Source of the DNA: an uncultured archaeon
GTDB lineage: Archaea > Altiarchaeota > Altiarchaeia > IMC4 > SCGC-AAA252-I15
Reading direction: 5' to 3'
Length of the DNA stretch: 39,017 bases
Assembly: GCA_902384455.1 (NCBI GenBank)
Contig: CABMCB010000051.1
Span: 1-39,017, forward strand
The notes below the pieces were generated by a model, which was given only the letters and a program-made list of their open reading frames with translations, searched no databases and was not told the DNA's origin. Positions 5,101 to 21,907 of the stretch are shown piece after piece (the stretch's first letter is position 1; each line of letters opens with the position of its first letter). Both the position numbers and the translations under genes were made by a program.

Positions 5101-5739
5101 TTACTCAGAACGAGGACTTTTACCGCCGTCACCTATCTCATCTGCAATCTCAACAAGCTGCTTCCTACGCGTAACCCCCTCCTCATACTCCTTCCACATG
5201 CGCGTCATATGCCCATAAACCCAGAAAACATCAACCGTCAACAAAAACACGCCCAAAAGCCCTCCCAAAACAAAAGGACTCACATTAACCCCCGTAAACT
5301 TAACCAACATCCTAACGTCACCCTCACCCCCCAACAAATAAACAACCGGCCCCAAAACGAAAGCCGACCCCGCAGTCGTAGCTAGAATAGAACTGAAAAC
5401 GCGGTTCTCATCAAGAAACCTGTCCGCAACCACAAAACAAAACGCGCCAAAAAAAAGCTCCGTCAACAACCCCGCGGAAAAAAAAGCCGCAGACTTAAGA
5501 ACCCCCAACTCACAGTAAGGCGTAATATAAGCCTGAACCCCACCAAAACCCCAAAAAAAAGAAAACGAAAACCTACACTTCAAGGCCTTCAAGACCAAAA
5601 TATGCGACAACTCATGGGTTAAGGGACCCAGCACCCAATAAACAGCCACAAAAACAAGGCTGCACAGAAACAGGACTTCCACCAGCCGGCGCGAAGAAAC
5701 AGAGCCGGCCTGCTCCATAACGTATTCTCGGGAGTACAC
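5101..5739 (-). CDS. Integral membrane protein with HExxH motif; putative M50-like zinc metallopeptidase
   Basis: HELSH follows the first TM helix, there are several more TM helices, and a downstream GEGD supplies a possible third ligand Asp. The gene is 1 nt downstream of the previous minus-strand gene. Confidence 0.6.
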   Translation of the reverse strand: MYSREYVMEQAGSVSSRRLVEVLFLCSLVFVAVYWVLGPLTHELSHILVLKALKCRFSFSFFWGFGGVQAYITPYCELGVLKSAAFFSAGLLTELFFGAFCFVVADRFLDENRVFSSILATTAGSAFVLGPVVYLLGGEGDVRMLVKFTGVNVSPFVLGGLLGVFLLTVDVFWVYGHMTRMWKEYEEGVTRRKQLVEIADEIGDGGKSPRSE

Positions 5740-6842: not shown

Positions 6843-7604
6843 CTACCTGGACAAAAAGTCCCTTATGCGGTCCTTCATGCTGATTTCAAAATCAACATCC
6901 TTCGAAAGAAGCCCGCTTGAAACCTGCTTCATCTGCTTGCTCACAATCGAATGAGGATACCGCCAAACAACAGGCCTCTTAGTCTCAACCGACTTGCGAA
7001 TACGATGATCCTCCCGAATCATACCCACGATAGGCAAATCCAAGAATATTGAAACGTTCTCCGCCTTCACCTCATCCTCACCCTGAACACGATTCAAGAC
7101 AACGCCCGCAAACTTCTTACCCCTCTTCTGAAACACAACCTTAGTCCTCAACGCGTCAGCCAAAGCCGGAAGCTCAGGATGAGTCACAATAAGAATCTCA
7201 TCAGCAGAATCAACCGCAGCAAAAGTATCCTCCCCCAAACCAGTAGGAGAATCAATCAAAATGAAATCCCGCTCATACAAAGTATGCTCCAACATCTCCC
7301 TCAAATTACGAGGAACAACATCAGCATACTGAGCATTCAACGAACCCGGAATAACCTCAAGACCAGTAGGATGCGTATAAATAGCGTCAGACAAAGGAGC
7401 CTCACCCTTCAAAACATTATGAATACTCACCTGAGGCGCAGTAAGGCCAAAATGAAGCCCGAGATTGGCGCCGGTAATGTCGGCGTCCACCATCGTCACC
7501 TTCTGTCCCTCATTGATAAGGGAGGCGCCCAAATTAGACACAACAGTAGTCTTACCAACGCCGCCCTTTCCCGAAACAATAGCTATTACGCGGGTCATAA
7601 TCAA
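6843..7604 (-). CDS. minD: MinD-family ATPase
   Basis: Deviant Walker A SGKGGVGKTT, VDAD, GLEVIPG, FILIDSP, GVVLNRV, and an amphipathic C-terminus MKDRIRDFLSR. Confidence 0.92.
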   Translation of the reverse strand: MIMTRVIAIVSGKGGVGKTTVVSNLGASLINEGQKVTMVDADITGANLGLHFGLTAPQVSIHNVLKGEAPLSDAIYTHPTGLEVIPGSLNAQYADVVPRNLREMLEHTLYERDFILIDSPTGLGEDTFAAVDSADEILIVTHPELPALADALRTKVVFQKRGKKFAGVVLNRVQGEDEVKAENVSIFLDLPIVGMIREDHRIRKSVETKRPVVWRYPHSIVSKQMKQVSSGLLSKDVDFEISMKDRIRDFLSR

Positions 7605-7614: not shown

Positions 7615-10200
7615 TCACTCTATGTTCCTCTTAATGCGCTTAATTACTGAGGCTCTCGTGCCTATTAAACCATCACTATTACCCTCCCCAAAACCCGACC
7701 TACTCGAAGGCCGAATCACACCCCCAAAAGAAGGCCGCCTTCCACCGCCGAAATCGGATTTAGGCGGCCCCTTTTTCCACCCCCCATGGACAGGTTTAGT
7801 GATTATGAGCGCTAAAAGCCCTACGATGACAAACAGCAGGAAGACGTATGTTGCCGCTTCAACGCTTACTGAAGGCATTTTGATGCTGGTGGCGAATCCG
7901 GTGCCTCCAGGCACGTTTTCTTCGTCTAAGGCAGCTTCGTCGGTTCCATTGCTTACTACGTTCTTATTTATGTTCTCCAGCTTGAAGCTGAAGCTGTGCG
8001 GATTCTCGTATTCGCCGGACTTCACGTTAAGCGTGACCAACATATAATCCTTGCATATGCCGCCACTGCAAACGTCCTCAGTGGGAGTAACCTCCATAAT
8101 AATGTCCCTCTTCTCGTCCACGCTAAACCGAGTTAAAGACGGCGGAGAAAACTGATAAAGCTGACTGGGGAAATCCTGCAGGTTAATGTAAACCGGGTCC
8201 GTAAAGTTCACCTGACCGCTGTTGTACAAAGTGAAAGTCACACGGTTAGTCTTGTTGAAAGTGATTGGAACGATGTCCGGCAGACCCAAAACAGTAAGTT
8301 CCTGCTTACGGTTGATACTAAGCAAAGTCGTATAATTAGTCTCCTGATACGGAGACTTGGACGCAGTAAGCACCAACTCACTCTGCCCCTCCCGCTTAGG
8401 CGCATTAACCTGCACCTCAAACCTACCCCCAGACGCAGTAAGAACATTATAAACGTCAGACTCACCACTGAAACGAGCAGTCACAGAAACACCATCAATA
8501 TAATTGCCATCAGTATTCTGAACGCGGCCTCTTAGGAATATGGGGTCTCCGATGTTGTACGTCTTGTCCGTGAAATCCAAGTTCTTTATCGTGAGCCCAA
8601 GCGTTTCGCCGATTAAGAACGTCGCAGACTGATTGAAGACGAAATGAACCACGTTCCTTATAGTGTTAACCTCCGACTCTACGCGAGTCCACTCACTCGA
8701 ACAGGAACTGGTCTTGAAATTCCAGCTGTCACACATGAAGACGCTCAACCCGCTTTCAGGACCTTTCACAACCATGTCATCATACTTCACCTCCGACTCA
8801 GCGGCCTGGAACGGAAAACCAAACTCAAAAACCGCAAGCTCCACAAGCCGAATACCATCAGGAGGCGCCTGTATTGTATGGCGGCCGTCGTAGTGTATTA
8901 CGTCGCTTACGCCGCTTGTCAGGTCGCTGTTTGATATGTTGACGTTGTAGAAAGTCACTATAGCGCCCGTTGAGAATTGGAGTGTGACGTCGTATGTGGA
9001 CGGGAGCAAGTCTATGTTGTAGTTTCCTATGCCGTCGGTGTTAGTCTCTATGGTGTCGCCAGTTGTTTTGTCGTTGAAGGTGAGCGTTGTCTGAATGGGG
9101 TTCCCCTGAGCCGACATTATTGTTCCGGAGAAATGAAGCACTGACGTTACTGTGACGGAATCCTGGTCCTTGTAGTCGTAGGCGGTCAGGCGCGGAGTCG
9201 CAACCGTCAAAAACAGGTCGTAAGAGCCGGCATTGAAGGTGCTAGGTATAAGGACGGTGACCTGGCAAATCTTGTTGAGGTCGTTGCAGGTGACCTGCTT
9301 TATTGAGACCACCTTGCCCGGCAGGTACTCCCCCATTATAACAGACTCAAAATTGGTGTCTGCTCTAAGGTCGCCTATAGTGCCGGCGTAGTATTCGACG
9401 CTGACATTCAAAACCGCTTCGCAGGGCTTGTTGGCAGGGCAAACTATGGCGTCGTTAAGTATCTTGATTTTAAGCGGCCCGTTGACTTTCACATAATCCG
9501 TTATGTCTTGGCTTACGCTCTCTCCTTGCGCGCCTGCCTTCAGTTCAAGGTCGTATGTGCCTTCTTTGATGTTTCTGCTGCTTTCAGGTATGTCAACTGT
9601 TATGCGCTGCTTGTTTCCGTCTACTATAATCGGCGGAGCAGGTTGGTTCAGCCGGTAGTCGTTAAGATACACGCTGAAAGTATCTTGGGTAGGCGTGACA
9701 ATCTGGCCATCCAGCTTGAATGCAACGTCAATAGTTATTTGGCCGCCGAGATATGTTTCAATGTTGTTTTTGTCGCGTATTATGGATAGGCTGAGGCGGC
9801 GTGCTGGAGTGTCTTGCTGGGCTGAAGCCGTCATGCTGAGGTAGTTGCAGACTGCTTTGATTGTGTAGAATCCGGTCTGTGAGAAAATGGGGGGTAACGA
9901 GTAGCGGTAGAAGCCGCTTCCTGTGTCGTAAGAAAGGAAGGGGGATGTTACGGGGGAGCTGGTGCCGGGGGCGTATATCTCTGCGTACATGACTGCCCCG
10001 TCAACGTACAATGTTGTTGTGGTGTTTGTGTATTTGCAGCGGGCCTTTATCTCTATTGTGTCTGATTTTTGGAGCCAGAATATGTTTGGCGTTATTGTTA
10101 GGTCTGTTACGGATAATGTGTCTGCTTTTACTGCGGGAATAATCAGCCCTATCATTATCGCCGCCGCAATCATGTTTCTCAGGGCTGTTTTTTTGTTCAT
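7615..10200 (-). CDS. Large secreted, C-terminally membrane-anchored multi-Ig-like protein with carboxypeptidase-regulatory-like (transthyretin-fold) repeats
   Basis: The likely start is ATG at 10200, 2 nt after the upstream minD stop. It has a signal peptide MNKKTALRNMIAAAIMIGLIIPAVKA, the motifs TDGIGNYNIDLLPSTYDVTL and TASGGRFEVQV, a TM helix YVFLLFVIVGLLALIIT and a Gly/Arg-rich tail. Confidence 0.8.
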   Translation of the reverse strand: MNKKTALRNMIAAAIMIGLIIPAVKADTLSVTDLTITPNIFWLQKSDTIEIKARCKYTNTTTTLYVDGAVMYAEIYAPGTSSPVTSPFLSYDTGSGFYRYSLPPIFSQTGFYTIKAVCNYLSMTASAQQDTPARRLSLSIIRDKNNIETYLGGQITIDVAFKLDGQIVTPTQDTFSVYLNDYRLNQPAPPIIVDGNKQRITVDIPESSRNIKEGTYDLELKAGAQGESVSQDITDYVKVNGPLKIKILNDAIVCPANKPCEAVLNVSVEYYAGTIGDLRADTNFESVIMGEYLPGKVVSIKQVTCNDLNKICQVTVLIPSTFNAGSYDLFLTVATPRLTAYDYKDQDSVTVTSVLHFSGTIMSAQGNPIQTTLTFNDKTTGDTIETNTDGIGNYNIDLLPSTYDVTLQFSTGAIVTFYNVNISNSDLTSGVSDVIHYDGRHTIQAPPDGIRLVELAVFEFGFPFQAAESEVKYDDMVVKGPESGLSVFMCDSWNFKTSSCSSEWTRVESEVNTIRNVVHFVFNQSATFLIGETLGLTIKNLDFTDKTYNIGDPIFLRGRVQNTDGNYIDGVSVTARFSGESDVYNVLTASGGRFEVQVNAPKREGQSELVLTASKSPYQETNYTTLLSINRKQELTVLGLPDIVPITFNKTNRVTFTLYNSGQVNFTDPVYINLQDFPSQLYQFSPPSLTRFSVDEKRDIIMEVTPTEDVCSGGICKDYMLVTLNVKSGEYENPHSFSFKLENINKNVVSNGTDEAALDEENVPGGTGFATSIKMPSVSVEAATYVFLLFVIVGLLALIITKPVHGGWKKGPPKSDFGGGRRPSFGGVIRPSSRSGFGEGNSDGLIGTRASVIKRIKRNIE

Positions 10201-10202
10201 GG

Positions 10203-10955
10203 TCAGAACACTGAAAGTAATCTTCTCCACAGGCTGCTGCGGGGCGGGTCGTAGGGTATGCTGAGGAGTTTTGCCGCCAGACTCTGGTATTGTACCGTGG
10301 CCGGCGAATAGGGGTTGTATCTTACGACTGGCGTTGAGCTGAATATGCTTTTCCTTATGTTGTCGTCTTCGGGTATGGAGGCGATTATGGGCGTCTCACA
10401 CATTATCTCGATTTCGTCGGGGGTAAGTTCGTACGCGTCGTTTTTGACGCGGTTGACCACAAGACCCACAATCTTTTTGTTGATCTCCTTGGCGTACTTG
10501 ATTGTCTTGGCGGCGTCAGTTACGGCGGGAACGTCGGGCGTTAGAACGACAAGAAGCTGGTTTGTGGCGTTGATTATGTGTTTGGTGTCCTCGTCTATGC
10601 CGGCCGGAGCGTCAATCACTACGGTGCCTTCAAGTTGGCGGACTACGTGCTTTAGGTTCTCAAGGTTAGCGTCCCTTTGGTTGAAAGATATCAAAGAAGG
10701 AACAATCCTGAGGCCTGAGTGGTGTACTCGTATGGTGTGCCGGATGTCTATTCCGTCGTTTAGGACGTGCTGAAGTGCGATTGGTACGTGCGGTAAATCA
10801 AGATGTAGAAGAACGTTGGGGTTTTTGAGGTTGGCGTCAACGAGGGTGACTTCCTCCCTGAAGTCATGTAGTGCAGTGGAGAAGTTAATTGCAGTCGTTG
10901 TTTTCCCTACGCCGCCTTTCCCTGAGACGACCCCTATTACATTGGGACTAGACAC
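10203..10955 (-). CDS. minD: MinD-family ATPase, second paralog
   Basis: SGKGGVGKTT, VVIDAPAG, GLVVNRV, IPEDDNIRKS and an amphipathic C-terminus SLWRRLLSVF. GTG start. Confidence 0.92.
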   Translation of the reverse strand: MSSPNVIGVVSGKGGVGKTTTAINFSTALHDFREEVTLVDANLKNPNVLLHLDLPHVPIALQHVLNDGIDIRHTIRVHHSGLRIVPSLISFNQRDANLENLKHVVRQLEGTVVIDAPAGIDEDTKHIINATNQLLVVLTPDVPAVTDAAKTIKYAKEINKKIVGLVVNRVKNDAYELTPDEIEIMCETPIIASIPEDDNIRKSIFSSTPVVRYNPYSPATVQYQSLAAKLLSIPYDPPRSSLWRRLLSVF

Positions 10956-11191: not shown

Positions 11192-12022
11192 TCACTTCTT
11201 CTTGACTGAACGAGACTCAGCAGCCCGCCTCTTCCTACCCTTCATTAAAACAAGAACAAAAAGGGCAAGAACAACGATAATTCCGGCCTCAACATAAATA
11301 AAAACGTCCTCATCAGACAAACCCTCAGGCTTAAGCTCATAAACAAAAGAGGCCTGATGAAGCCCGTCCAACGAGGCCGCAACTATGGTTATGTTTCTGC
11401 CCACCCATTTTACCGGCGTATAGTTCAATGCGACTTCTACGGGCTGGTCTGCCGTAAGATTGGTTTCGTAGGGCTCAAAAATCCATCCGGTAGGGTAATC
11501 GATGGCGGTGATGGCGGTCGGACCCCACGTATAATTGGGGTTAAGTTGAAGCAGGACTTCATCCCTCGTATTTTCCGCCTGGACTTTTAGGCCGGCCTGT
11601 TTTATCGGTTGGGGTTTTGTTGCGTTTAGGACGGTGAAGTTGAATTCCGGCCCTTCTATCGCGATGTAGCATAATTGGACGTATGTTTGTGCGGTGTATT
11701 CTCCTTCGGCGTCTGGGTACCAGTACGCTGTGAAGTCGTCGTGTTCGCCTGTTTCGAGCGGGGATTGTTTGCTCCATATTTGGGCGACTGTTTTGTTGGA
11801 TGCGTTTTGGATTACTACTCTGTATCTGGTGAGGCAACCTACTGACCCGCTGTTTTCCCAATCCATCTTAAAGACCTGCGGTTGGTTTGTAAGGTTTGGT
11901 TGGGCTGTGGCGTAGTTCCTGAATCCGTCGATGATTCTGTCCACGTCCACCTTTATGGCTAAGGCGGATGCCCCAGAGGCCAATGTTAGCAAAATAATTA
12001 TGGTTAAGGCGGCGTTCTTCAT
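11192..12022 (-). CDS. Secreted Ig-like (DUF3324/CARDB-like) protein with C-terminal TM anchor
   Basis: Signal peptide ending ASA-LA, motifs WENSGSVGC...PLETGEHDDFTAYW...GEYTA, TM helix GIIVVLALFVLVLM and a basic tail. Confidence 0.75.
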   Translation of the reverse strand: MKNAALTIIILLTLASGASALAIKVDVDRIIDGFRNYATAQPNLTNQPQVFKMDWENSGSVGCLTRYRVVIQNASNKTVAQIWSKQSPLETGEHDDFTAYWYPDAEGEYTAQTYVQLCYIAIEGPEFNFTVLNATKPQPIKQAGLKVQAENTRDEVLLQLNPNYTWGPTAITAIDYPTGWIFEPYETNLTADQPVEVALNYTPVKWVGRNITIVAASLDGLHQASFVYELKPEGLSDEDVFIYVEAGIIVVLALFVLVLMKGRKRRAAESRSVKKK

Positions 12023-12024
12023 CT

Positions 12025-12564
12025 TTACATGTACGGTATGAACGGGCTCATGAAGAAGTACCGCGGTACCTTGATTATAACTTGGACTTCCCCCGAGTAT
12101 TCTCCTATCTCAGTGCCTGCCGCAACCAGCGTGACGATGTTTTTGGTGCCCGGCGCCAGATTGACGCTGTCGCTGGATGGATTTAGCTGGCTGCTTATGT
12201 TGCCTTTTACTCGTATGAAAATTTTTGCGTTGTTAGATTCGGGGCTTGTGATGTTCAGCGTCTTGGTGACGTTGAATCCTACGGGAACTATCCCAAAATT
12301 GAGGCTGGCGGTGTCTGTGGCGACACCTATGTTGAGTTTGCTGCTTCCTATGTCAGACGGCAAAACAGTGAAGTTAGCGGGGAACCTATAAACCTTCTCC
12401 TTGTACAACAAGCTCATGTCCTGATTCACGTCCTCTCCAACCAATCCGGAGTCAGGTACATCCACCCGCCTCAAATCCCAGACGGAATAACACGCCGCCA
12501 ATACGGCAACTGCAAAGAGCGCTATAACAGCAATCAATATGCCCAACTTAACATTCGAAACCAT
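12025..12564 (-). CDS. N-terminally anchored single Ig-like domain protein; possible minor or anchor subunit
   Basis: N-terminal hydrophobic helix followed by SLNFGIVPVG...LNITS...NLAPGTKNIV...GEYSGEVQV, a beta-sandwich pattern. Confidence 0.7.
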   Translation of the reverse strand: MVSNVKLGILIAVIALFAVAVLAACYSVWDLRRVDVPDSGLVGEDVNQDMSLLYKEKVYRFPANFTVLPSDIGSSKLNIGVATDTASLNFGIVPVGFNVTKTLNITSPESNNAKIFIRVKGNISSQLNPSSDSVNLAPGTKNIVTLVAAGTEIGEYSGEVQVIIKVPRYFFMSPFIPYM

Positions 12565-12583: not shown

Positions 12584-13705
12584 CTAAGTCTTCCAGTAGA
12601 CGACTATTAGTATGACGATTAGTTCTATTAAAATCCATCTCACCGGTATGTCGTTTGGGCAGACAAAAAGCCCCACAACAGTGAACAAACCGCATATTAT
12701 GAAAGCAAGAAGTGCGGTATACGCAAGCTGCAACGCTCCGACAGCATACACTATCAGGAACAACCCAATCAGCACGAGCAGAATCCACCACGGGAAATAA
12801 CACCCTTGAGCTGTGGGACGTATTCTGGGCGCAGAAATAATCTTTGGAACGTTAACCGTCTGTTCCCTATAAGCGTAATCCGTTATGTACTCAACCCGCG
12901 CAACAACGCGGTAAATTCCGGATTCGATATCCTTCTTGGTATCCACCCAGTAAGTGCTCAGTATAGCCACTTCACGGGGTTTAACAATAGTGGGCCCGCT
13001 ATAAGTCGTAGACGCCAAGTTGTCCAGGTTGTTGAATATCTCCGCTTGGTCCGCCCAAGGGATTAAAGTGCAAGTGCCAGTGTTCTTGAAAACCATGTCA
13101 ATGCGCACCTTATCCTGAGCTTCTCGTTCCGCCTGAATGTCGGTTATCTCCCCTTTTCTGTACCCGTTTCCAGGAACCCTGAAAACGTACATGAATCTGG
13201 TGACACCTATAGTCTGCACGCCTATGCCTTGGCCAGGTATTTCCTGCGGTATGAGGTTCACGGAGCCTGCGTAGTAGCATGGTTCTGCGTCATCAGGCAC
13301 CTTTATCTCAAGCTCTGCCTTCGCGTTCGCCTTCACCACCGAACCGTCGGCTAGGTGCAGTATAAAAGAGTTCTTAGGCGATACTATAACAGGGTCTCTG
13401 CGGATAGTCAGCCAGTTTCCAGGATCAAGTTGGCTTGCCTCAGACGGGGTGAAGTTATAGGCGCCGACCGTTGCATTCTGCCTGAAAAAGCCTTCGTGGA
13501 CCTTTATGGGCGATAATCCCACTATGACATCGTGGTCCGCGGTGGTTATCAAATAAAACTCAAATTCCTTCGATTGCCCCCTCTCTATTTCCCCCAAATC
13601 AAGGACTCCGGGGGCCGTGCCTATTGAGTATGCCGTGGCGTTGGTGGTTAGTGCGATGAAAGCTGCGGCAAGGAGTATTGTGGCAAGCAGGCGTTTTTTG
13701 GGCAT
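12584..13705 (-). CDS. DUF916/DUF3324-like (WxL-interacting/chaperone-like) two-Ig-domain membrane protein
   Basis: Signal peptide. Domain 1 reads IGTAPGVLDL...NWLTI...IKVPDDAEPCYYAGSV...FRVPG. Domain 2 reads FKNTGTCTLIP...IVKPRE...W...GIYRVVARVEY. About three C-terminal TM helices. Confidence 0.7.
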   Translation of the reverse strand: MPKKRLLATILLAAAFIALTTNATAYSIGTAPGVLDLGEIERGQSKEFEFYLITTADHDVIVGLSPIKVHEGFFRQNATVGAYNFTPSEASQLDPGNWLTIRRDPVIVSPKNSFILHLADGSVVKANAKAELEIKVPDDAEPCYYAGSVNLIPQEIPGQGIGVQTIGVTRFMYVFRVPGNGYRKGEITDIQAEREAQDKVRIDMVFKNTGTCTLIPWADQAEIFNNLDNLASTTYSGPTIVKPREVAILSTYWVDTKKDIESGIYRVVARVEYITDYAYREQTVNVPKIISAPRIRPTAQGCYFPWWILLVLIGLFLIVYAVGALQLAYTALLAFIICGLFTVVGLFVCPNDIPVRWILIELIVILIVVYWKT

Positions 13706-13735
13706 TTCTCTCTCCTTTATGTTATGTTTTGGTGT

Positions 13736-14050
13736 TATTTAAGTTGTGTTTTTTCGGGTGTTTTGTTTTAATCTGGTTTTTTGTTGTTATACTGCTGGTT
13801 GTGTGTGGTAGAAAGAGGCCGTACTATCGATTGATATATTAATATATCGATATATCGGTGATAAATCGCAATGCTGCGGGCATTAAAATTGGTCGTTTAA
13901 TCGGGGGTGCAGCAGAACAATTTATATCTCGATATAGTGATATATCTATATCTCGATAAAAAACGAAAGGTATTTAAGCAACTTCGTTTAATGAAATTAA
14001 CGTATCTCACTATATCACTATCACACTATCGTGATATGAGAATATAGTGG
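13736..14050. promoter_or_regulatory. Divergent promoter region with repeated GATATAGTGA/GATAT-based operator-like motifs
   Basis: Minus-strand CTTAAATA at 13736-13743. Plus-strand BRE-TATA-like CGAAAGG-TATTTAAG at 13964-13978. Palindromes GATATATTAATATATC (13833-13848) and CGATATATCG (13848-13857). The 16-mer sits at 13930-13945, with an inverted partial copy TCACTATATCACTA at 14007-14020. Confidence 0.65.
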
Positions 14051-14127
14051 CCTAAAAACGACTAAGAAATAGTCCGTTGATACGGTAAGGGTAGCGCTTC
14101 GGGTCTCGTGGGTTAGGAAGGTCAAAA

Positions 14128-15090
14128 ATGAAAAAAACCGGAGCGAACTGGGCAATAATCCCAGCCTTATTGACTATATTGATATTTACGACACTTGTGG
14201 CCGCTGACGTCACAAAAACTGACACCGTATCTATCAGCGTTCAAGTTGCAGAAAAAACGCTGATCGACGTCAGCCCAACATCCCTGTCCTGGACTGGCGG
14301 AGACGCCGTAGACCCCGGCGCGCGAGGCACAGAAAAAGCAATACAGATAGAAAACATCGGTTCAACAAACATAACCGCAATATGGTTCAACACTACTTCT
14401 GAAACAACACGCCCGTTCGGAACAGGTAACCCGACAGCATATGATGCCGGCAACTTCGTAAGAATCCGCCGCAACGCATCCAACCAGATGGGTTACCACT
14501 TCGTCAACCGCAGGGAATTCAACGAAACCTTACTCATATACTTAACAACAGCCGCCGGCATAACAACCCACGGCAGATTCCGCGAAGCAAACACAGAATG
14601 GTTCTGGGGACTGGACCCCGGCGCGGACGGACTGTGCAACAACACTGGAACCACATTCTACATAGGGGAGACACCCCACAACCAGTCACAGGACGGCTCA
14701 GTCACACTAAACGCTTGCGGCGACACCCTCGGCTCAGGATTCACAGCCAACAACTGCCGAAGCGGAAACATGGAAGCAGTAGACACCACTGACGTGCGAT
14801 GGTCCTGGGCCGACGTAATAGTCGGAGACGCAGCAGCCAACTCATGGAACTACTCGGTGGCTGCGTTTTCCGACTGCACCCAGGTGTACTTCTACAAATG
14901 GAACATGGATATGCCTGGCGCGACAGTTGCAGCCAACGACTACGCCGACTACCTAACGCAAACCTGGTTATACCCAGGCGGCAACATCATAGTCGACGTG
15001 AGAGTCAGCGTGCCTTATGGTACTGCTCAAGGTACTGTTACCCAAGGAACCCTGACTGTCGTAGCATTGGCCGCAGGAGCAAGCCTGTAA
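14128..15090 (+). CDS. Secreted putative filament subunit A (TasA/WxL/donor-strand pilin-like pattern)
   Basis: Sec signal peptide, N-terminal alternating beta-strand TDTVSISVQV, IDVSPTSLSW...VDPG...IQIENIGSTNI, and C-terminal LYPGG...VRVSVPYGTAQG...GTLTVVA. No TM anchor. The CDS call is firm; the function is inferred. Confidence 0.75.
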   Translation: MKKTGANWAIIPALLTILIFTTLVAADVTKTDTVSISVQVAEKTLIDVSPTSLSWTGGDAVDPGARGTEKAIQIENIGSTNITAIWFNTTSETTRPFGTGNPTAYDAGNFVRIRRNASNQMGYHFVNRREFNETLLIYLTTAAGITTHGRFREANTEWFWGLDPGADGLCNNTGTTFYIGETPHNQSQDGSVTLNACGDTLGSGFTANNCRSGNMEAVDTTDVRWSWADVIVGDAAANSWNYSVAAFSDCTQVYFYKWNMDMPGATVAANDYADYLTQTWLYPGGNIIVDVRVSVPYGTAQGTVTQGTLTVVALAAGASL

Positions 15091-15167
15091 GCGATAAACA
15101 AAAAATCAATCAAAAAAAGGAGACAATAAACTTAAAAAGGAGGACCAAAAAAACAGAGGACAAAAAA

Positions 15168-16178
15168 ATGGAACAAAGAACAATTGTGACGGCGCTGCTT
15201 TTGTGCGGGATTTTATTCCTGATAAATCCCGCTGAAAGTCAAGCTCTGCAGGTTAACTCAACAGACTCGAGCACCGTGTCGGTGAGTATAAGCTCAGTCA
15301 CCAACGTGAACATTGACCCCAACGCGCTGTCTTACAGCGGCTGCACACCAGGCGCCGACTGCGTGAACACAAGCGAATCAAGCAAATTCTTCGCCATGCA
15401 GATTGAGAACATAGGGTCACACAACATAACCCACGCATGGTTCAACGTATCCCAGCCAACCGCTAGGCCGTTCGGTACAGGACTTGCCACCTCGTTCGAC
15501 GCAGGCAACTTCGTTGTCCTACAAAACGAATCCGGCGACTACACGGCTCCCGCCGGCGGGTCACTCGACTTCCTCTGGGTCGACGCCCTAGAATATAACG
15601 AAACAAGAAACCTTGTCTACCTGACAGACCCAGACGGCGTAATACCCCCCAGACTAGACCGATACATGATAGGCCGCTTCCACAACGCCAGCTACGAATA
15701 CTACTGGATGCTTCAGAACGGCACAGGCGGTCTCTGCAATACATCGGACACCAAACTCTACATCGGCATAACACCCCACACCAAGACCCTGCAGGGAAGC
15801 ATCGACTTCTCTGTCGCAGGCAACCGCCAGCTAGTGACACTGACCACAGACGGAGGCCAAGGATGGGCTGTTGGAGCAATAGCCGGAACAGGCGGCGCTA
15901 ACACCCGGTTAGGGCCTTACTGTGTTGCAGCAAATAGCGCATGCAGCAAGGTTCGCATATACCGCTGGAACATGGAAGCTCCCGGAGCAACCAACGCAGC
16001 GTGCACGCAAGCCCTCTACTTCGTGGGTGCGACGACGGACACTCAATCCCGTTACACAACAGCGCCGTTCCTGCCTGGAACAAGCAGAGTAGTGAACATA
16101 CGAATCCGCGTACCATTCGGAGTATATGAAGGTAGCGTGACTCAAGGGACGCTGACGGTAATCGTCAACGACGCGTAA
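15168..16178 (+). CDS. Secreted putative filament subunit B, paralog of 14128-15090
   Basis: The true start is probably ATG15168 (MEQRTIVTALLLCGILFLINPAESQA), preceded by GAGGA. It shares QIENIGSxNIT, RPFGTG, DAGNFV, GRF, GLCN, YIGxTPH, WNMxxPGAT and VTQGTLTV with subunit A. Confidence 0.78.
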   Translation: MEQRTIVTALLLCGILFLINPAESQALQVNSTDSSTVSVSISSVTNVNIDPNALSYSGCTPGADCVNTSESSKFFAMQIENIGSHNITHAWFNVSQPTARPFGTGLATSFDAGNFVVLQNESGDYTAPAGGSLDFLWVDALEYNETRNLVYLTDPDGVIPPRLDRYMIGRFHNASYEYYWMLQNGTGGLCNTSDTKLYIGITPHTKTLQGSIDFSVAGNRQLVTLTTDGGQGWAVGAIAGTGGANTRLGPYCVAANSACSKVRIYRWNMEAPGATNAACTQALYFVGATTDTQSRYTTAPFLPGTSRVVNIRIRVPFGVYEGSVTQGTLTVIVNDA

Positions 16179-16200: not shown

Positions 16201-16235
16201 GACTAGGGCCGGTTCCGAAAGGGCCGGCCCTAGTC
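16201..16235 (+). terminator. Strong GC-rich stem-loop directly after the two subunit genes (terminator or 3' stabiliser)
   Basis: GACTAGGGCCGG and CCGGCCCTAGTC form a perfect 12-bp stem, extended by a short inner stem closing a GAAA loop. No long U-tract follows. Confidence 0.7.
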
Positions 16236-16289: not shown

Positions 16290-16526
16290 ATGAAGACCGA
16301 ATCCCAGTATTCCAAATCAGATTTGTCTGAAGTGGACAAAGTGATTTTGGATGGTTTAAAGGCGTCGGCAAACCCTAAATCAACGTACGTCATCGCCAAG
16401 GAAAGCAAAATTTCGTGGTCAACTGCCAACAGTCATTGCTATAAGCTTAAGTCGATGGGCATCATCAAGAGCGCAGTCGGTAAGTCTAAAGCGGGGTCCG
16501 GAAAGAAGATGATGTGGTGGCTTTAA
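16290..16526 (+). CDS. Small winged helix-turn-helix DNA-binding protein
   Basis: STYVIAKESKISWSTANSHCYKLKSMGII fits an HTH pattern. An AGGAG RBS precedes it, and TTTAAA lies at 16255-16260. Confidence 0.75.
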   Translation: MKTESQYSKSDLSEVDKVILDGLKASANPKSTYVIAKESKISWSTANSHCYKLKSMGIIKSAVGKSKAGSGKKMMWWL

Positions 16527-16580
16527 CGCCGCCGCATTGCATCCTTCGGCGGTGCGTTCCGCATTTAGGGGTGGACTGAT

Positions 16581-17570
16581 GTGGACCCAACGGACTTGAC
16601 CCGCCGGATAAACTCTTGCAATGAGAAGCTTGAGGTTTTTCGCCAGGAAATACATAAGATAGTTATAGGTCAGGATGATATTATCGACACCCTGATTAAG
16701 GGTTTGTTGTGTAACGGTCATATTCTTCTTGAGGGTGTTCCTGGTGTCGCCAAGACTTTGATTGTTGTGGCGATGGTTCAGACCGTGAAGGATGCGTCGC
16801 TTCAGCGTATTCAGTTTACTCCTGATCTTCTGCCGACTGACATTACGGGAGTAACTATTTACGAGGAGAAGAAGGGTTTTTACACCATTAAGGGGCCTGT
16901 TTTCACTAATTTCCTTGTTGCCGACGAAGTCAACAGGACTCCTCCTAAGGTGCAGTCTGCTCTTCTTCAGGCGATGCAGGAGCGTGAGGTGACCATTGGC
17001 CGGCAGACTTTGCCGTTGCCTAAGCCTTTTTTCGTGTTGGCTACTCAGAATCCTCTTGAGACTAAGGGTGTTTATCCTTTGCCTGAAGCTCAGGTGGACA
17101 GGTTTCTGTTTAAAATCAGCATAGGTTATGTCCCCAAGAAGGATGAGATCCGGATCATAGACCAGAACGTAGACATCAAAGGCATTTCCGAGTATGAAAT
17201 AAACCGTGTTTTAGGCGTCAACGAAATTCTGGAGTACCAGGGTTTAGTCAAGCAGATATACCTCGCCGACGAAGTGAAGCGGTATATCGTCAGTCTTGTT
17301 AATGCTACGAGGAGGCCGAAGGATTTTGACGTGAAGTTGGGGAAGTATGTGCGTTGGGGGGCGTCGCCTCGGGCTACGATTAACCTGTCTCTTGGGGCGA
17401 GAGCCACTGCGCTTTTGAACGGTCGTACTTATACGACGCCTGAGGATGTTAGGGCGGTTGCGCCTGCTATTTTGCGGCATAGGATTATTCTTAACTATGA
17501 GGGTAAGGCTACTGAAGTTAAGACTGATGATGTGATTAAGGAGATCATAAGTAAGGTGCCGGTGAGGTAA
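16581..17570 (+). CDS. moxR: MoxR-family AAA+ ATPase (paralog 1)
   Basis: GHILLEGVPGVAKT, RIQFTPDLLPTD, DEVNRTPPKVQSALL, ATQNP, LPEAQVDRF, GASPRA, LRHRI. Confidence 0.95.
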   Translation: MDPTDLTRRINSCNEKLEVFRQEIHKIVIGQDDIIDTLIKGLLCNGHILLEGVPGVAKTLIVVAMVQTVKDASLQRIQFTPDLLPTDITGVTIYEEKKGFYTIKGPVFTNFLVADEVNRTPPKVQSALLQAMQEREVTIGRQTLPLPKPFFVLATQNPLETKGVYPLPEAQVDRFLFKISIGYVPKKDEIRIIDQNVDIKGISEYEINRVLGVNEILEYQGLVKQIYLADEVKRYIVSLVNATRRPKDFDVKLGKYVRWGASPRATINLSLGARATALLNGRTYTTPEDVRAVAPAILRHRIILNYEGKATEVKTDDVIKEIISKVPVR

Positions 17571-17571
17571 A

Positions 17572-18294
17572 ATGGAAAAGGAAAAGAAGATTGAGCGTGT
17601 GCCGTCTGGTATTCGCGGATTTGACGAGTTGATGGAAGGTGGTTTCCCTCAAGGGGATACTGTGCTTTTGACTGGTACGCCGGGTACTGCCAAGTCTACT
17701 TTTGCGTTGCAGTACATTGTGCAGGGCGCTTTGAAGTATAAGCAGAAGGGCGTTTACATCACTTTGGAGGAGCACGACAAGGATCGGTTGGCGGCTAGGG
17801 CTTTGCGTTTTGGCTGGGATTTGCCTGCTCTTGAGGAGGCTGAGAAGATTCTTATTTTTACTCCTGAGTTGCAGCCGGAGTTGGGTGAGGACAGTTTGGA
17901 GTGGCTGGAAAAAAGCGGCGCAGGAAAGTTAATCAAGGAGTTTGATCCGCAGCGTATTGCTGTGGACAGTCTGACTGTGCTTTTGGCTTACGCTAAGGAT
18001 TACGGCGGCGAGCGCCGCATAGTGGAGAACTTGGTGAACAGTTTCCGTTTCAACGCCACTACGATGTTCATCAATGAGCGTAAAATAAGCGACTTAGACA
18101 AGATCGACTTTCAGACGGAGGAGTTCGTTTCAGACGGCATAATATACCTGCAGTTCATCCGTCACGGCAACCTTTACCGTCGGGGAATAAACATAGTCAA
18201 AATGAGAGGCACGAACCACGACACGGGCGTGTATCCTTTCCGCATTGAGGAAGGCGGCGGAATAATAGTTCACCCCTCAGAAAAACTGTTTTAA
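17572..18294 (+). CDS. Single-domain KaiC/RAD55-like RecA-fold ATPase
   Basis: RVPSGIRGFDELMEGG, Walker A variant GTPGTAKST, ITLEE, VDSL, EEFVSDG, VKMRGTNH. Confidence 0.92.
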   Translation: MEKEKKIERVPSGIRGFDELMEGGFPQGDTVLLTGTPGTAKSTFALQYIVQGALKYKQKGVYITLEEHDKDRLAARALRFGWDLPALEEAEKILIFTPELQPELGEDSLEWLEKSGAGKLIKEFDPQRIAVDSLTVLLAYAKDYGGERRIVENLVNSFRFNATTMFINERKISDLDKIDFQTEEFVSDGIIYLQFIRHGNLYRRGINIVKMRGTNHDTGVYPFRIEEGGGIIVHPSEKLF

Positions 18295-18300
18295 ATTAAA

Positions 18301-19038
18301 ATGGTCCTAATCGACAGAGTGCCCACGGGAATACATGGGCTGGATGAAGTAATCCAAGGCGGATTTCCCAAAGGGGACACCATACTTCTGACCGGCACTC
18401 CCGGAACAGGAAAGACGACGTTCGCCCTGCAGTACCTCGTCGAAGGGGCAGTAAGGCATGGTGAACGCGGCGTCTACATAACGCTGGAAAAAAGCATAGA
18501 CCGCCTGGAGGCGCGAGTGCACCCGTTCGGCTGGGACCTGAAGCGGCTGGAAAAAGAAAAGAAAATAATGATACTGGACCCGGTAATAAAAACGGAGTTC
18601 GGAGAAGACCCGGTGGAATGGCTGCAAAGCAAGGAAGTACAAAAGAAAATCAACGCATTCGCCCCCCAAAGAGTCGCATTAGACAGCCTGACGCAACTTC
18701 TGCAGTACACCCGGGAAAAAGGCGGAATCCGCAGAGGAATAAAGACGATAATGGACTCCTACCAGCTGGACGCCACAGCCCTGTTCATACACGAACGCCA
18801 ATACGGCGGAATAGACAACGTGGAATACACCCCCGAAGAATACATCGCCGACGGCATAGTATACATGCAACTAATACGAGAAGCAGACGAATACCACCGC
18901 GGACTCACCGTGCTAAAAATGCGCGGAACATCCCACACTCTGCGCATACTGCCCTACATAATAGAAAAAGACGGCATCCGAGTGAAACCAAGTTCACCGC
19001 TACGAATAACAAAAAGCGGAATCAAAATAAGATTTTAA
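18301..19038 (+). CDS. Single-domain KaiC/RAD55-like RecA-fold ATPase, second paralog
   Basis: RVPTGIHGLDEVIQGG, GTPGTGKTT, ITLEK, LDSL, EEYIADG, LKMRGTSH. Confidence 0.92.
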   Translation: MVLIDRVPTGIHGLDEVIQGGFPKGDTILLTGTPGTGKTTFALQYLVEGAVRHGERGVYITLEKSIDRLEARVHPFGWDLKRLEKEKKIMILDPVIKTEFGEDPVEWLQSKEVQKKINAFAPQRVALDSLTQLLQYTREKGGIRRGIKTIMDSYQLDATALFIHERQYGGIDNVEYTPEEYIADGIVYMQLIREADEYHRGLTVLKMRGTSHTLRILPYIIEKDGIRVKPSSPLRITKSGIKIRF

Positions 19039-19047
19039 ACCAAACCA

Positions 19048-20034
19048 ATGAACGCCTCACTCCAAAACGACGTGGAAGAGCTCGGAAGAAAAATAAAGCA
19101 AGTAAAGACGGAGCTCCACAAAGGAATCGTCGGCCAAGACGAAGTCATAGAGGCAGTTCTAACCTCCATAATGTGCAACGGCCACGTCCTTATAGAGTCT
19201 GTTCCGGGTCTTGCCAAGACCACGTTGGTGCGTTTTTTGAACGCCACAATCAAAGACAGCAGTTTTCAGCGTATCCAGTTCACTCCAGACCTTCTGCCGA
19301 CAGACATAACCGGAGTGAACGTCTATGAGGAGCATAAGGGCTTTTACACCATCAAGGGACCGATTTTCGCCAACATAATCTTAGGGGACGAAATCAATAG
19401 GACTCCCCCTAAGGTGCAGTCTGCGATGCTTCAGGCGATGGCCGAGCGTGAGGTTACTATTGGTCGTGAGACTTTTCCTTTGCCTAAGCCTTTTCTTGTT
19501 CTTGCGACTCAGAATCCTCTTGAGCAGCAGGGTACTTATCCGTTGGCTTTGGCGCAGTCGGACCGGTTCATGTTCAAGGTGGACATGGATTATCCAGCGG
19601 AGGATGAGGAGTTTCACATTATAGACCAGAACATTGATGTTAAGCGTTTGGAGGATTTCGGTTTGGAGCAGTGCCTGAGTTTTCCTGACATATTCCGTCT
19701 GCAGGAGATTACAAAGAAAATTCACATATCGGAGGAAGTGAAAGAGTATGTGGTCAACCTTATTGACGCTACTCGTTACCCGGATAATTACGGGATTAAA
19801 GCCGGCAGGTACGTCCGCTGGGGCGTGTCTCCGCGGGCTACAATAGCGTTGGTTTTGGCCGCTAAGGCCAAGGCGGTTCTTGCGGGTCGTACTTACGTTA
19901 TTCCTGAAGACGTCCGGACGATTGTTTACCCTGTCATAAGGCATCGTCTCATCCTGAACTATGAGGCTAAGGCGAGGGAAATAAGCCCCGACTCTATAAT
20001 CAGCGAAATAGTGAAAATGGTGCCGGTGACGTGA
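19048..20034 (+). CDS. moxR: MoxR-family AAA+ ATPase (paralog 2)
   Basis: GHVLIESVPGLAKT, RIQFTPDLLPTD, DEINR, ATQNP, DRF, GVSPRA, RHRL. Confidence 0.95.
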   Translation: MNASLQNDVEELGRKIKQVKTELHKGIVGQDEVIEAVLTSIMCNGHVLIESVPGLAKTTLVRFLNATIKDSSFQRIQFTPDLLPTDITGVNVYEEHKGFYTIKGPIFANIILGDEINRTPPKVQSAMLQAMAEREVTIGRETFPLPKPFLVLATQNPLEQQGTYPLALAQSDRFMFKVDMDYPAEDEEFHIIDQNIDVKRLEDFGLEQCLSFPDIFRLQEITKKIHISEEVKEYVVNLIDATRYPDNYGIKAGRYVRWGVSPRATIALVLAAKAKAVLAGRTYVIPEDVRTIVYPVIRHRLILNYEAKAREISPDSIISEIVKMVPVT

Positions 20035-20934
20035 ATGGAGACCGACAGTTTGCCTCAGGAGTTTACGAGTCTTGACGACCTAACCAAGGAGATAGACACC
20101 AACGTCAACCGGATAATAGACGTCTTCAGGTTCATCCTAAAGTACCAGATGCTTTTCAGAGGCGGCGGAATAGAGTTTGCGGGCTTAAGGCATTACGTTT
20201 TGGGCGAAGACGACGCCAAGCGCATAGACTGGCGCGCAAGCCTTAGAGCCAAGGAGCTGATGGTCAGAGACTACGAGGAGGAACGCGACCTTGACGTAGT
20301 CATCTTACTTGACTCAAGCGCAAGCATGCTGCTTGGCACGACCGGAAAACTCAAAAGCGAATATGCGGCCATAGTCGCCGGCGTATTGGTTTATGCGGGC
20401 ATTGAGACTGGCGACAACGTGGGTTTCATCATGTTCAACGACAAGATTGTGGCTTCAGTCGACCCCAGCAAGGACATCGCCAACTACTACGTCATCCTGA
20501 AGATGCTGGTGGACCCCCGCAACTGGGGTGGTGGGGCAAATCTCGAGGAGGCGTTGAAGCGCTCGATGAGCACCATCGGAGAAAAAAGCGTTCTGTTCCT
20601 GATTTCGGATTTCATAGGGGTGGGAGACGAATGGAACAACTCCGTTAAAATGGCGGCGGCAAAATTCAGCGAAGTGTTCGGCATAATGATACTGGACGAA
20701 AGAGACGACAAAATACCTCCCGGAATAGGAGTCATGCGCCTTAAGGACCCGTTTTCAGGCGAAGTCTCGACGATAAACATGGACGCAGCCAGGAAAAAAT
20801 ACATGCAGCTGGCCCAAGCAAAGGAGGAAAAGACTTTTGCGACATTCCACGAAGCGCACAGCAGGTTCGTAAAAGTATACTCCCACGAAAACTTCGTGGA
20901 ACCACTGGTCAAATACCTGGAGATGGAGGAATAA
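20035..20934 (+). CDS. DUF58-family vWA-like MoxR partner
   Basis: GIEFAGLRHY...DDAKRIDWRAS...YEEERDL, LLDSSASM, GDNVG, LISDF. It abuts moxR. Confidence 0.92.
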   Translation: METDSLPQEFTSLDDLTKEIDTNVNRIIDVFRFILKYQMLFRGGGIEFAGLRHYVLGEDDAKRIDWRASLRAKELMVRDYEEERDLDVVILLDSSASMLLGTTGKLKSEYAAIVAGVLVYAGIETGDNVGFIMFNDKIVASVDPSKDIANYYVILKMLVDPRNWGGGANLEEALKRSMSTIGEKSVLFLISDFIGVGDEWNNSVKMAAAKFSEVFGIMILDERDDKIPPGIGVMRLKDPFSGEVSTINMDAARKKYMQLAQAKEEKTFATFHEAHSRFVKVYSHENFVEPLVKYLEMEE

Positions 20935-20935
20935 C

Positions 20936-21907
20936 GTGGACTCACAAAGCATCGTACTCCAAAGGGAAATAACAGACGTCCTCATACTCACAGTATTCCT
21001 AACCGTCCTACTATACTGGCTGGCAAAAAACAGAGTCGAAAAACGCATACTAACATTCGGAAACTACGAAACCCTAAAAAAAGCATACGGCTCACGCATA
21101 AGATTCCTCGGCTGGGGACTGGTACTACTGCGACTGGCGGCCGTATCCCTCTTCGTGCTGGCTTACGCCAACCCCCAGACGGTGACCGTAAGACCCGCCC
21201 CAACAAGCGACTTCGTACTGGCCATAGACACCAGCAGCAGCATGCTGACTCCGGACTACAATCCCAACCGTCTTGAGGCCACTAAGGAGACGGCAGTCAA
21301 GTGGCTGTCGACTTTGGAGGGCGTGAACGTGGGTGTTGTGACGTTTGCTGGGAGGGCTTATATTCGGCTGAAGCCGACTAATGATTTCGCGGAGATTATG
21401 TCGACGATTCAAGACATTAATCTGGATACGCCTGCCGGCACGGCGATTGGCGATGCTTTGGTTGCTTCGTCTGCGTTGCTGTCGAAGTCTCAGACTAACA
21501 GGACAATTATCTTGATTACTGACGGGCGCAACAACATCGGAGTGTCCATCAACGATAGCCTTCAGCTTCTTCAGCAGAATAACATGAAGGTTGTTGCGAT
21601 TGGAATAGGGACTATCGGCGGTCAAGATAATACCACTACGACGGTGCCTTCCGAGCTGGCTAGGTTCAATGCTACGGTGGCGTCGTTTGCCGACTTGGAT
21701 GTCGATACCCTCCAATATCTCGCTAACGCCACCAACGGGACTTTCAATTACGTTGAGGATGTTTCATCCCTTCAGCAGGTTCTTTTCGGTTCGACCGAGA
21801 ACGTGGAAGTAAAGCGTTCGCTAGCCAACTACTTTTTCTTCCCCGCGCTTGTTCTGCTTTTGTTGGACTGGAGCTTTGAAGCTACCCGCTATCGCCCAGT
21901 GCCTTAA
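20936..21907 (+). CDS. BatA-like membrane vWA-domain protein
   Basis: Two N-terminal TM helices ending LAYANP, an intact MIDAS motif DTSSSM, PNRLEATK, GTAIGDAL, LITDG and a C-terminal TM helix. Confidence 0.9.
   Translation: MDSQSIVLQREITDVLILTVFLTVLLYWLAKNRVEKRILTFGNYETLKKAYGSRIRFLGWGLVLLRLAAVSLFVLAYANPQTVTVRPAPTSDFVLAIDTSSSMLTPDYNPNRLEATKETAVKWLSTLEGVNVGVVTFAGRAYIRLKPTNDFAEIMSTIQDINLDTPAGTAIGDALVASSALLSKSQTNRTIILITDGRNNIGVSINDSLQLLQQNNMKVVAIGIGTIGGQDNTTTTVPSELARFNATVASFADLDVDTLQYLANATNGTFNYVEDVSSLQQVLFGSTENVEVKRSLANYFFFPALVLLLLDWSFEATRYRPVP

Follow-up and report, generated by a model that had tools for sequence, protein, structure and literature searches.

According to the available text of PMC12337348, the Tafi pili form a third group of archaeal strand-donation pili, after the archaeal bundling pili (ABP) with the threads and the cannulae, and their loci carry tandem pilins together with a regulator, a signal peptidase of their own, a tip protein and an anchor. 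CanX, AbpX, AbpA and the 0406 thread are placed in the TasA superfamily, mainly in Thermoproteota with some other phyla, in the accessible parts of PMC12518558, and TasA-superfamily fibres are treated further in PMC9245690 and PMC9674648. As far as these accounts go, the known archaeal strand-donation fibres come almost all from Thermoproteota and haloarchaea (PMC12337348, PMC12518558). For bacteria of the Candidate Phyla Radiation (CPR), the preprint PMC13278184 proposes, in its available portion, the Pam pilus, an usher-free donor-strand pilus whose chaperones are anchored in the membrane and whose membrane tether donates a strand. Here we describe two adjacent genes, A and B, in a 39,017-nucleotide stretch of DNA (the window, analysed whole) from an uncultured archaeon of the Altiarchaeota (assembly GCA_902384455.1, contig CABMCB010000051.1, positions 1 to 39,017). 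We propose, with a probability of roughly 60%, that their products represent a new family of subunits, A-type and B-type, that build a strand-donation fibre.

The features of the two genes that bear on this proposal are the following.

14128-15090, + strand: gene A, 320 aa, predicted secreted subunit, A-type clade of an unnamed family.
14128-14205, + strand: signal peptide of A, residues 1-26, with cleavage after VAA judged by eye and not by a prediction tool.
14218-14256, + strand: putative donor strand of A, residues 31-43, TDTVSISVQVAEK, with conserved alternation and no secondary structure in the monomer model.
14473-14970, + strand: inserted all-beta domain of A (predicted), residues 116-281, with conserved Cys170 and Cys250.
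14974-15072, + strand: last two core strands of A (predicted), residues 283-315, PGG...VPYG...GTLTV, the acceptor side in the model.
15168-16178, + strand: gene B, 336 aa, predicted paralogous subunit, B-type clade.
15261-15299, + strand: putative donor strand of B, residues 32-44.

A and B are tandem paralogs. BLASTP aligns them with 114 identities in 300 positions (38%, E 4e-55), which speaks for paralogy and against chance. The open reading frame (ORF) called mechanically for gene B spans 14799-16178 and overlaps gene A, and we took B as 15168-16178 because a signal peptide is obtained from the ATG at 15168, which has GGAGG ahead of it. Both proteins carry a Sec-type signal peptide and then an amphipathic strand, with TDTVSISVQV (A) and TDSSTVSVSI (B) directly after the signal peptide. 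They continue with the core motif VSPTSLSW in A and IDPNALSY in B, the motif pair IQIENIGSTNIT and MQIENIGSHNIT, and the C-terminal motifs LYPGG...VDVRVSVPYGTAQGTVTQGTLTV and LPGTS...NIRIRVPFGVYEGSVTQGTLTV, respectively. All of the strings from which the first-pass annotation of this DNA had proposed two tandem secreted paralogs are present, and several of its further claims about them hold. It had found no membrane anchor: a simple hydropathy scan of A picks out residues 5-29 alone, which are the signal peptide, B ends in ...GTLTVIVNDA without a hydrophobic tail (by eye), and a membrane anchor is absent from both. It had also pointed to conserved cysteines and NxT/S sequons, and among 149 aligned family members Cys170 is kept in 95 and Cys250 in 94, while the sequons at A positions 81, 132 and 88 are kept in 126, 114 and 98, respectively. 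A contains seven sequons and B nine, where shuffled sequences average 4.1 (P 0.10 for A and 0.012 for B).

The most regular feature of the family is the N-terminal strand. Each of the 149 aligned members carries polar-[VI]-polar-[VI]-polar-[VI] immediately behind its signal peptide; large hydrophobic residues (V/I/L-type) occupy A positions 36, 38 and 40 in 99%, 97% and 100% of them, and polar residues occupy positions 35, 37 and 39 in 89-95%. Judged from the alignment, this alternation is far more regular than would be expected of a linker. An AlphaFold2 monomer model of A, made with 33 sequences, has a mean predicted local distance difference test score (pLDDT) of 87.0 and a predicted template modelling score (pTM) of 0.83, with residue 46 as the start of its first strand. 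For residues 31-40 the mean pLDDT is 72, with no secondary structure, and for that reason the N-terminal strand is placed outside the sheets of the monomer, in agreement with the free strand that had been claimed.

A partner for this strand is suggested by a model of three copies of mature A (residues 27-320) built with the 149-row alignment, the only complex modelled. Its interaction prediction scores from aligned errors (ipSAE) are 0.81, 0.71 and 0.81, against 0.00 for the best of three controls, and the runs have at least 93% of contacts in common with a partner pLDDT of at least 87. The mark for complex scores is one that 20 of 30 proteins solved as one-chain pairs reach, as does 1 of 23 solved as single chains, a calibration that is only rough for three copies with their own alignment. 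The model docks residues 28-43 of one copy against the next copy's first and last core strands, and the donor-strand exchange put forward in the first-pass annotation is in this way reproduced in silico. Recall of a known complex is unlikely because no PDB sequence resembles the family: its sequence profile has 0 matches to PDB sequences at E up to 10.

The predicted contacts are given for the scored copy only and between two copies, the third adding one residue. The donor copy contributes residues 28-43, 45, 47, 49-51, 71, 73, 75-81, 282-285 and 288, and the acceptor copy residues 44-64, 72, 74, 89, 97-111, 135-138, 184-192, 291-315 and 318. Since the contact residues differ between the two copies, the interface of the model is asymmetric and head-to-tail. 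The closest residue pairs include 34-309, 36-306/309, 38-55/107 and 40-295/299-302, which would set the strand, by its hydrophobic side, antiparallel against the final core strand of the neighbouring copy. The contacts do not point to a closed ring, the N-terminal strand of the third copy being absent from the partner contacts of the one copy scored. Conservation points to the same surface: 19 of the 30 most conserved mature positions fall in the predicted interface, which takes up 94 of 294 positions (hypergeometric P 1.9e-4; Mann-Whitney P 9e-8). This is a separate test, made with the same 149-row alignment that was given to the model.

The core of A is predicted to be a PapD/ASH-like immunoglobulin-type (Ig) sandwich split by a 166-residue all-beta insert. 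Modelled alone with a 67-row alignment, residues 116-281 give an all-beta fold with pLDDT 90 and pTM 0.87, as expected from the large inserted domain that had been proposed, and the sequence conservation of the insert is below that of the core. Solved relatives are hard to find for either part. The VIA-align tool commonly gives a best Z of 7-8 to unrelated models, and all of the present matches fall below this noise level. The best match of the whole A model is 6fvi_A, an ASH/PapD-like domain (Z 5.3, root-mean-square deviation (rmsd) 3.4, 104 aligned), followed by MSP/VAP domains and then by donor-strand subunits: FimA 4dwh_D (Z 4.5, 113 aligned), the Hyper2 cannula-like tube (Z 4.5, rmsd 7.2), FimG 3bfq_G (Z 4.3, 111 aligned), CanA 7uii (Z 4.3, rmsd 7.2), the TasA fibre 8aur_A (Z 4.2, rmsd 4.1, 127 aligned), WxLIP (Z 4.1) and the ex vivo cannulae 9h8b (Z 3.9). 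Because these values lie within the noise, they say only that the core is an Ig-type sandwich of the PapD/ASH kind. That the matches are mostly PapD-like domains and donor-strand pilins may be counted as a weak pointer towards a fibre. Foldseek with the whole A model returns nothing from the PDB at E up to 1e-3; a TasA-type match is weak (E 0.09, probability 0.30), as are the ESM Atlas structure rows for PF12389 clusters (TM 0.37/0.54). The insert likewise returns nothing from the PDB at E up to 1e-3. Its best VIA-align Z is 4.6, with dengue E domain I, TPP II and FlgE D2 (Z 3.9) as top rows, which were dismissed as a common sandwich, and in these comparisons of models its fold has no convincing solved relative.

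Profiles do not point to TasA. NPCBM_assoc/NEW3 is matched by 14 of the 149 members (best E 0.0029, under the gathering score) and PF12389 (Peptidase_M73) by three (best E 0.056, also sub-threshold), with A and B not matching the latter. The motifs PG...ENIGS and PG...VPYG...GTLTV are presumably the usual marks of CARDB/NEW3/ASH-type Ig domains and not of TasA, and we take the seven-strand Ig sandwich motifs xxVxNxG and PG...VP.G...G.Y.G to typify sandwiches of the PapD/ASH/MSP and CARDB/NEW3 types. The earlier idea that the PG...NxGS pattern and the terminal GTLTV strand recall TasA and pilin folds is not supported by these comparisons, and the fold likeness to TasA, CanA, FimA and WxLIP is weak, at Z 3.9-4.5 and below the noise level.

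The family itself is large and wholly unannotated. A and B match no Pfam family and no NCBIfam entry at E up to 0.1. Searching exhaustively with A returns 281 representative clusters (50% identity clustering) with E no higher than 1e-3; 214 of them reach 1e-10 or better, and nearly all of the 281 are 290-380 aa long. A word-indexed search with B gives 35 proteins, A and B counted, with no informative names and with the most distant from Nanohaloarchaea; the ESM Atlas holds a 539-member cluster of hypothetical proteins that is 99% archaeal. The 31 loci returned by a scan of one genome per species are titled Altiarchaeota, Woesearchaeota, Aenigmatarchaeota, Micrarchaeota, Nanohaloarchaea and unclassified archaea, with single records labelled Methanobacteriota and Methanosarcinales. 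A and B are the sole family copies in their own genome (2.41 Mb, 103 contigs, 91.9% complete), and 10 of 41 related genomes, this one counted, contain the family.

This distribution bears on a further possibility, that A and B build a two-dimensional surface lattice or sheath, S-layer-like, in which the head-to-tail contact is one of several. Many archaeal surface-layer proteins are, like A and B, secreted, sequon-rich and of Ig type, and the strong hairpin after gene B (see below) suits a highly expressed gene. However, occurrence in only 10 of 41 related genomes would be odd for a main wall layer, A and B have neither a membrane anchor nor a known anchoring tail, and the model shows a single asymmetric interface; we regard a lattice as improbable.

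In one relative, P0117 (672 aa), the family domain is preceded by a Laminin_G_3 lectin-like domain (E 6.9e-31), and the strand motif is retained internally. If each N-terminal strand enters the preceding subunit, an N-terminal extension is possible only on an end subunit, and P0117 in that respect resembles a tip adhesin, making it a candidate tip subunit form. A search for longer family forms at 665-2000 aa gave none, though P0117 came from the cluster search with A, and the search for shorter forms gave one 143-aa fragment alone. The existence of a lectin-fused relative could also be taken to mean that A and B are monomeric secreted adhesins or binding proteins, whose insert, a well-folded separate domain, binds a ligand and whose self-contact is a modelling artefact. 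Such a role leaves unexplained both the near-invariant N-terminal alternation and the clustering of conserved residues at the interface, and it sits poorly with an insert that is less conserved than the core; we consider it highly improbable.

Tandem arrangement of family genes is common. After removal of four duplicates there are 38 distinct related loci, many of them ended by contig ends, and 24 have two to four family genes (one gene in 14 loci, two in 14, three in seven and four in three). A maximum-likelihood tree of 67 family proteins, comprising A, B and 65 unique full-length ORFs from the loci, places B (WIN_B) in a 28-row clade (ultrafast bootstrap 96, Shimodaira-Hasegawa-like approximate likelihood ratio test (SH-aLRT) 90) and A (WIN_A) in a 15-row clade (97 and 94), each including several phylum labels. 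With clade membership taken from a quick tree and the gene order of the loci, the next gene after an A-clade gene is a family gene in 15 of 15 cases: a B-clade gene in nine, a gene of a small sister clade in three and a truncated or unplaced copy in three. The A and B types are on this basis old, distinct paralogs, and their separate old clades together with the conserved order suggest two specialised subunits rather than recent duplicates. A major and a second subunit had been proposed in the first-pass annotation; the two kinds fit the clades, and either may be the major one. Genes for small winged helix-turn-helix (wHTH) proteins come after B-type genes, and in loci L019, L015 and L018 the A-B-wHTH unit, or B-wHTH alone, is duplicated in tandem, with the order A, B, wHTH, A, B, wHTH in L019.

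In the mechanism that we propose for a strand-donation fibre, A and B would be exported through Sec, and cleavage by the general signal peptidase would expose the short N-terminal amphipathic beta-strand (V34, I36, V38 and V40 in A). Each subunit would be a PapD/ASH-like Ig sandwich made of strands in 46-115 and 283-315, with the insert of 166 residues facing outward. The donor strand may lie antiparallel on the last core strand (about 299-309) and against segments 53-57 and 107-108 in the subunit before it, and this donor-strand complementation could give an open-ended head-to-tail polymer, an extracellular fibre. Since the A and B types are old, distinct paralogs, the fibre would probably contain two kinds of subunit, either major and minor or mixed.

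The genes around A and B fall into an upstream module on the opposite strand and a downstream module on the same strand, as follows.

5101-5739, - strand: p212, a four-transmembrane (TM) HExxH protein.
5741-6778, - strand: p345, part of the rest of the upstream module.
6843-7604, - strand: MinD/ParA, part of the rest of the upstream module.
7615-10230, - strand: 871-aa surface protein with CarboxypepD_reg and MG4 matches, ending in a TM helix and a basic tail.
10203-10955, - strand: MinD, part of the rest of the upstream module.
11192-12022, - strand: p276, in which a signal peptide and a conserved I-x-V-x-V strand lead into an ENxGS-type Ig domain, with a TM helix and a basic tail at the C-terminus.
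12025-12564, - strand: p179, with an N-terminal TM anchor and a single ASH/PapD-like Ig domain.
12584-13705, - strand: p373, with a signal peptide, a pair of Ig-like domains and, at the C-terminus, one to three TM helices.
13706-14127: divergent intergenic region of 422 nt between p373 and gene A, with ATATCGATAT-like palindromes.
16201-16235, + strand: GC-rich stem-loop of 15 bp, 23 nt after the gene B stop, a possible terminator or mRNA stabiliser.
16290-16526, + strand: small winged-helix protein of 78 aa with weak HTH_24 and Lrs14-like matches.
16581-21907, + strand: downstream module of MoxR, two KaiC-like ATPases, MoxR, DUF58 and VWA/BatA-like genes.

Three of the upstream neighbours encode Ig proteins with TM helices and are candidates for accessory roles. 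The layout of p276, a strand after the signal peptide and a C-terminal TM helix, is found in 10 of 10 aligned homologs, and p276 is a candidate membrane anchor that donates a strand. The mature chain of p373 opens directly with the first core strand, SIGxAPGVxDLG, without an extra strand, and it is a candidate base or chaperone. For p179, a candidate membrane-tethered chaperone, the matches are weak and sub-threshold (Cep192_D4, ASH and choice-of-anchor D, E 5e-4 to 5e-2). Together these membrane-anchored Ig proteins, p276 with a strand and p373 and p179 without, may anchor or chaperone the fibre. As family homologs, p276 and p373 were tried with hhalign and set aside as too weak (probability 21.8%, with the strand and ENxGS aligned, and 17.1%, respectively), and reading the LAAC of p179 as a lipobox was dropped, its cysteine not being conserved in 11 homologs.

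Two elements suggest that A and B form a regulated, strongly expressed unit, the hairpin after B and the intergenic palindromes. The hairpin at 16201-16235 has a folding energy of -30.3 kcal/mol (z -5.4), and 0 of 200 shuffles fold as well. The ATATCGATAT/TATCNCGATATAGTGATAT-like palindromes lie at 13830-14037 with a spacing of about 90-94 nt and may be an operator array, perhaps for the small wHTH protein, which from its sequence is a candidate local regulator and may control the A and B fibre genes. A second inverted repeat was seen by eye after the wHTH gene, at about 16527-16560, and neither it nor the hairpin has a T-run behind it.

Much of this neighbourhood recurs. Among 26 loci with at least 1.5 kb of downstream sequence, wHTH is found in 17, MoxR in 16, DUF58 in 14, VWA in 14, p212 in seven, p345 in six and a giant surface protein in five; among 19 with at least 1.5 kb upstream, p373 is found in 10, p276 in nine, p179 in nine, MinD in eight and the 871-aa protein in six. 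KaiC is present in only one related locus. Every recurrent cluster gene is found in the window between 127 and 21907. The two KaiC-like ATPases (17572-19038, + strand) and the two MinD/ParA-type ATPases are embedded in the cluster. p212 associates with the MoxR-DUF58-VWA part of the cluster; an invariant HExxH, two cysteines and a G-D motif are present in 7 of 7 homologs, no Pfam family matches, and by its sequence it looks like an unannotated membrane metalloprotease. At the start of the window a giant surface protein (1-5097, + strand) of at least 1656 aa, open at the window start, ends in a TM helix and a basic tail, and both giant surface proteins (1-5097 and 7615-10230) have homologs in related clusters. 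The first 5 kb of the window have an extreme strand composition, with GC skew down to -0.49 and AT skew up to +0.54.

The downstream module gives strong profile matches to AAA_3 (1.6e-57 and 1.8e-56), KaiC (8.6e-56 and 1.1e-57), DUF58 (2.7e-39), VWA_2 (4e-19) and BatA (8.9e-5), and it raises the possibility that A and B do not polymerise and serve instead, much as BatD-type Ig proteins do, as envelope components of a Bat-like MoxR-DUF58-VWA system. The N-terminal strand would then dock on p373, p179, a large surface protein or its own chain, and not on the next copy. The recurrence of MoxR, DUF58 and VWA downstream (16, 14 and 14 of 26 loci) speaks for such a system, as do the resemblance of the core to CARDB/NEW3/DUF11-type Ig domains and the presence in the window of a second MoxR cluster that encodes a BatD/CARDB-like protein. 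However, the homo-oligomer model passes by a wide margin and uses the conserved strand, arrays of old paralogs in tandem typify fibre subunits, and MoxR was not found in 10 of those 26 loci, all with at least 1.5 kb of downstream sequence. We consider a Bat-like role rather unlikely.

The second MoxR cluster lies at 29999-37075, separate from the A/B cluster. It encodes a 1334-aa protein that combines SNAP/TPR repeats, a BatD/CARDB/NEW3-like domain and DUF835, and after it a third MoxR (34022-34972, recognised by BLAST to other MoxRs) and a 695-aa FG-GAP beta-propeller/TPR protein, and we take the cluster to resemble the MoxR-vWA-beta-propeller systems.

A number of points count against a strand-donation fibre of A and B. 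The fibre is a proposal: paralogy, secretion signals, conservation of the strand and the recurrent gene cluster are shown, and the fold and the head-to-tail interface are predictions. The repeating filament is implied by the head-to-tail geometry of contacts between two copies only; as many as 19 of every 100 single chains may attain the mark for complex scores, and the job, with three copies and its own alignment, differed from the calibration. N81, in the conserved NIT sequon (126/149), is within the predicted interface, where a glycan could clash. All structural matches are under the noise level of the tool, and the Foldseek search of the PDB was empty; the spread of the family over 10 of 41 related genomes is patchy. 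The neighbouring MoxR, DUF58 and VWA genes make up the set found in Bat-type envelope operons, for which fibres are not known. Finally, Pfam names no signal peptidase or usher among the larger ORFs of the window (37086-37715, 37822-39015 and small ORFs being outside the scan), so that the cluster has, among the scanned ORFs, no dedicated signal peptidase, usher or known pilus assembly gene. This accords with the first-pass annotation, which had seen no SipW-like peptidase or usher adjacent; matches to the archaeal signal peptidase I (TIGR02228) are found in the genome on contig C79 only, and not on the A/B contig.

A broader proposal takes the region 127-21907 (about 22 kb) as one Sec-dependent, usher-free donor-strand pilus apparatus of DPANN-type archaea, with roles for its components, and this we regard as doubtful. 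p179 and p373, as membrane-tethered PapD-like Ig proteins, would hold the subunits, and growth of A/B heteropolymers would start at the membrane. The fibre would be terminated and anchored by p276 through donation of its I-x-V-x-V strand, and lectin-fused variants would form the tips. The MoxR/VWA, MinD and KaiC-like ATPases and the four-TM HExxH protein could mature, place or regulate the pilus.

If the strand-donation fibre of A and B is real, it would constitute a fourth group of archaeal strand-donation fibres, after the ABP/threads, the cannulae and Tafi, distinguished by a PapD/ASH-like core, a large insert without a convincing structural match, the absence of a dedicated peptidase and an accessory cluster of its own. 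The family, with its 281 clusters and 539-member Atlas cluster, is centred on little-studied DPANN-type lineages and would bear on how such cells attach to hosts and surfaces, and A and B are small enough to express, making the prediction directly testable. A literature search on donor-strand complementation or strand donation in DPANN found no paper describing the family, although supplementary homolog lists (of TafE, AbpX or CanX) could include members. Searches linking MoxR and DUF58 to archaeal filaments, or covering MoxR and von Willebrand proteins in DPANN, found nothing on topic, and a paper on archaeal genomic dark matter has no mention of MoxR, vWA, MinD, DUF58 or CARDB.

The Bat-type operons share with this locus the MoxR (AAA_3), DUF58 and BatA-like VWA genes, here directly downstream of A and B, whereas A and B match no Bat protein family. 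To our knowledge, Bat operons do not include tandem strand-bearing subunits. The chaperone-usher pilins (FimA, FimG, PapE, Caf1 and CsuA/B) are alike in that each Ig-like subunit is completed by an N-terminal extension which the following subunit supplies, and PapD-like Ig proteins are encoded next door to A and B (p179 and p373, assigned on sub-threshold matches). They differ in that the A/B genome is archaeal and that neither an usher nor a soluble PapD chaperone is named among the neighbours.

The TasA superfamily (TasA, AbpA, Saci_0406 threads, AbpX and CanX/CanA), as described in the accessible parts of the sources cited above, resembles A and B in its N-terminal donor strand (here predicted) behind a Sec signal peptide, its all-beta sandwich subunits, its tandem paralogs and its lack of an ATPase-driven pilus machine. 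The resemblance in fold is weak only (8aur_A Z 4.2 and 7uii Z 4.3, below noise). A search with PF12389 for TasA-like sequences gave 0 matches in the genome of A and B and matches in 0 of 61 genomes of the phylum. Unlike these proteins, the A/B family has no sequence or profile match to the superfamily above threshold, and its best fold match is PapD/ASH-like. Its core is split by the 166-residue insert, and its locus has other accessory genes and no adjacent signal peptidase. Tafi (TafE/TafA) loci, going by the available locus descriptions alone, are alike in their tandem divergent pilin paralogs and small transcription regulator, and a tip protein and a membrane anchor are proposed for them; Sec-dependent relatives also exist. 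They carry the signal peptidase TafD and TafG, neither of which is found at the A/B locus among the scanned ORFs, although a dedicated signal peptidase I is frequent rather than universal in TasA and Tafi loci. Membership of A and B in the TasA superfamily or among the chaperone-usher pilins is not supported by the profile, peptidase or usher tests, and the fold likeness is within noise; with no PF12389 match, no peptidase and no usher, the family is filed apart from TasA, Tafi and the chaperone-usher pilins.

The closest analogue in organisation is the Pam pilus. As the available portion of the preprint describes it, donor-strand pilins lie in one operon, membrane-anchored Ig chaperones correspond to the putative roles of p179 and p373, and a membrane-tethering terminator that inserts its N-terminus corresponds to that of p276; both systems occur in ultra-small, episymbiont-rich lineages. 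The two belong to different domains of life and are likened by organisation and not by sequence, and the TM helices of the Pam chaperones are C-terminal, whereas that of p179 is N-terminal. Should the reading of the whole 22 kb region as one apparatus be true, the Pam pilus of CPR bacteria would have an archaeal counterpart in this locus, a candidate organelle by which ultra-small archaea attach to other cells or to a host.

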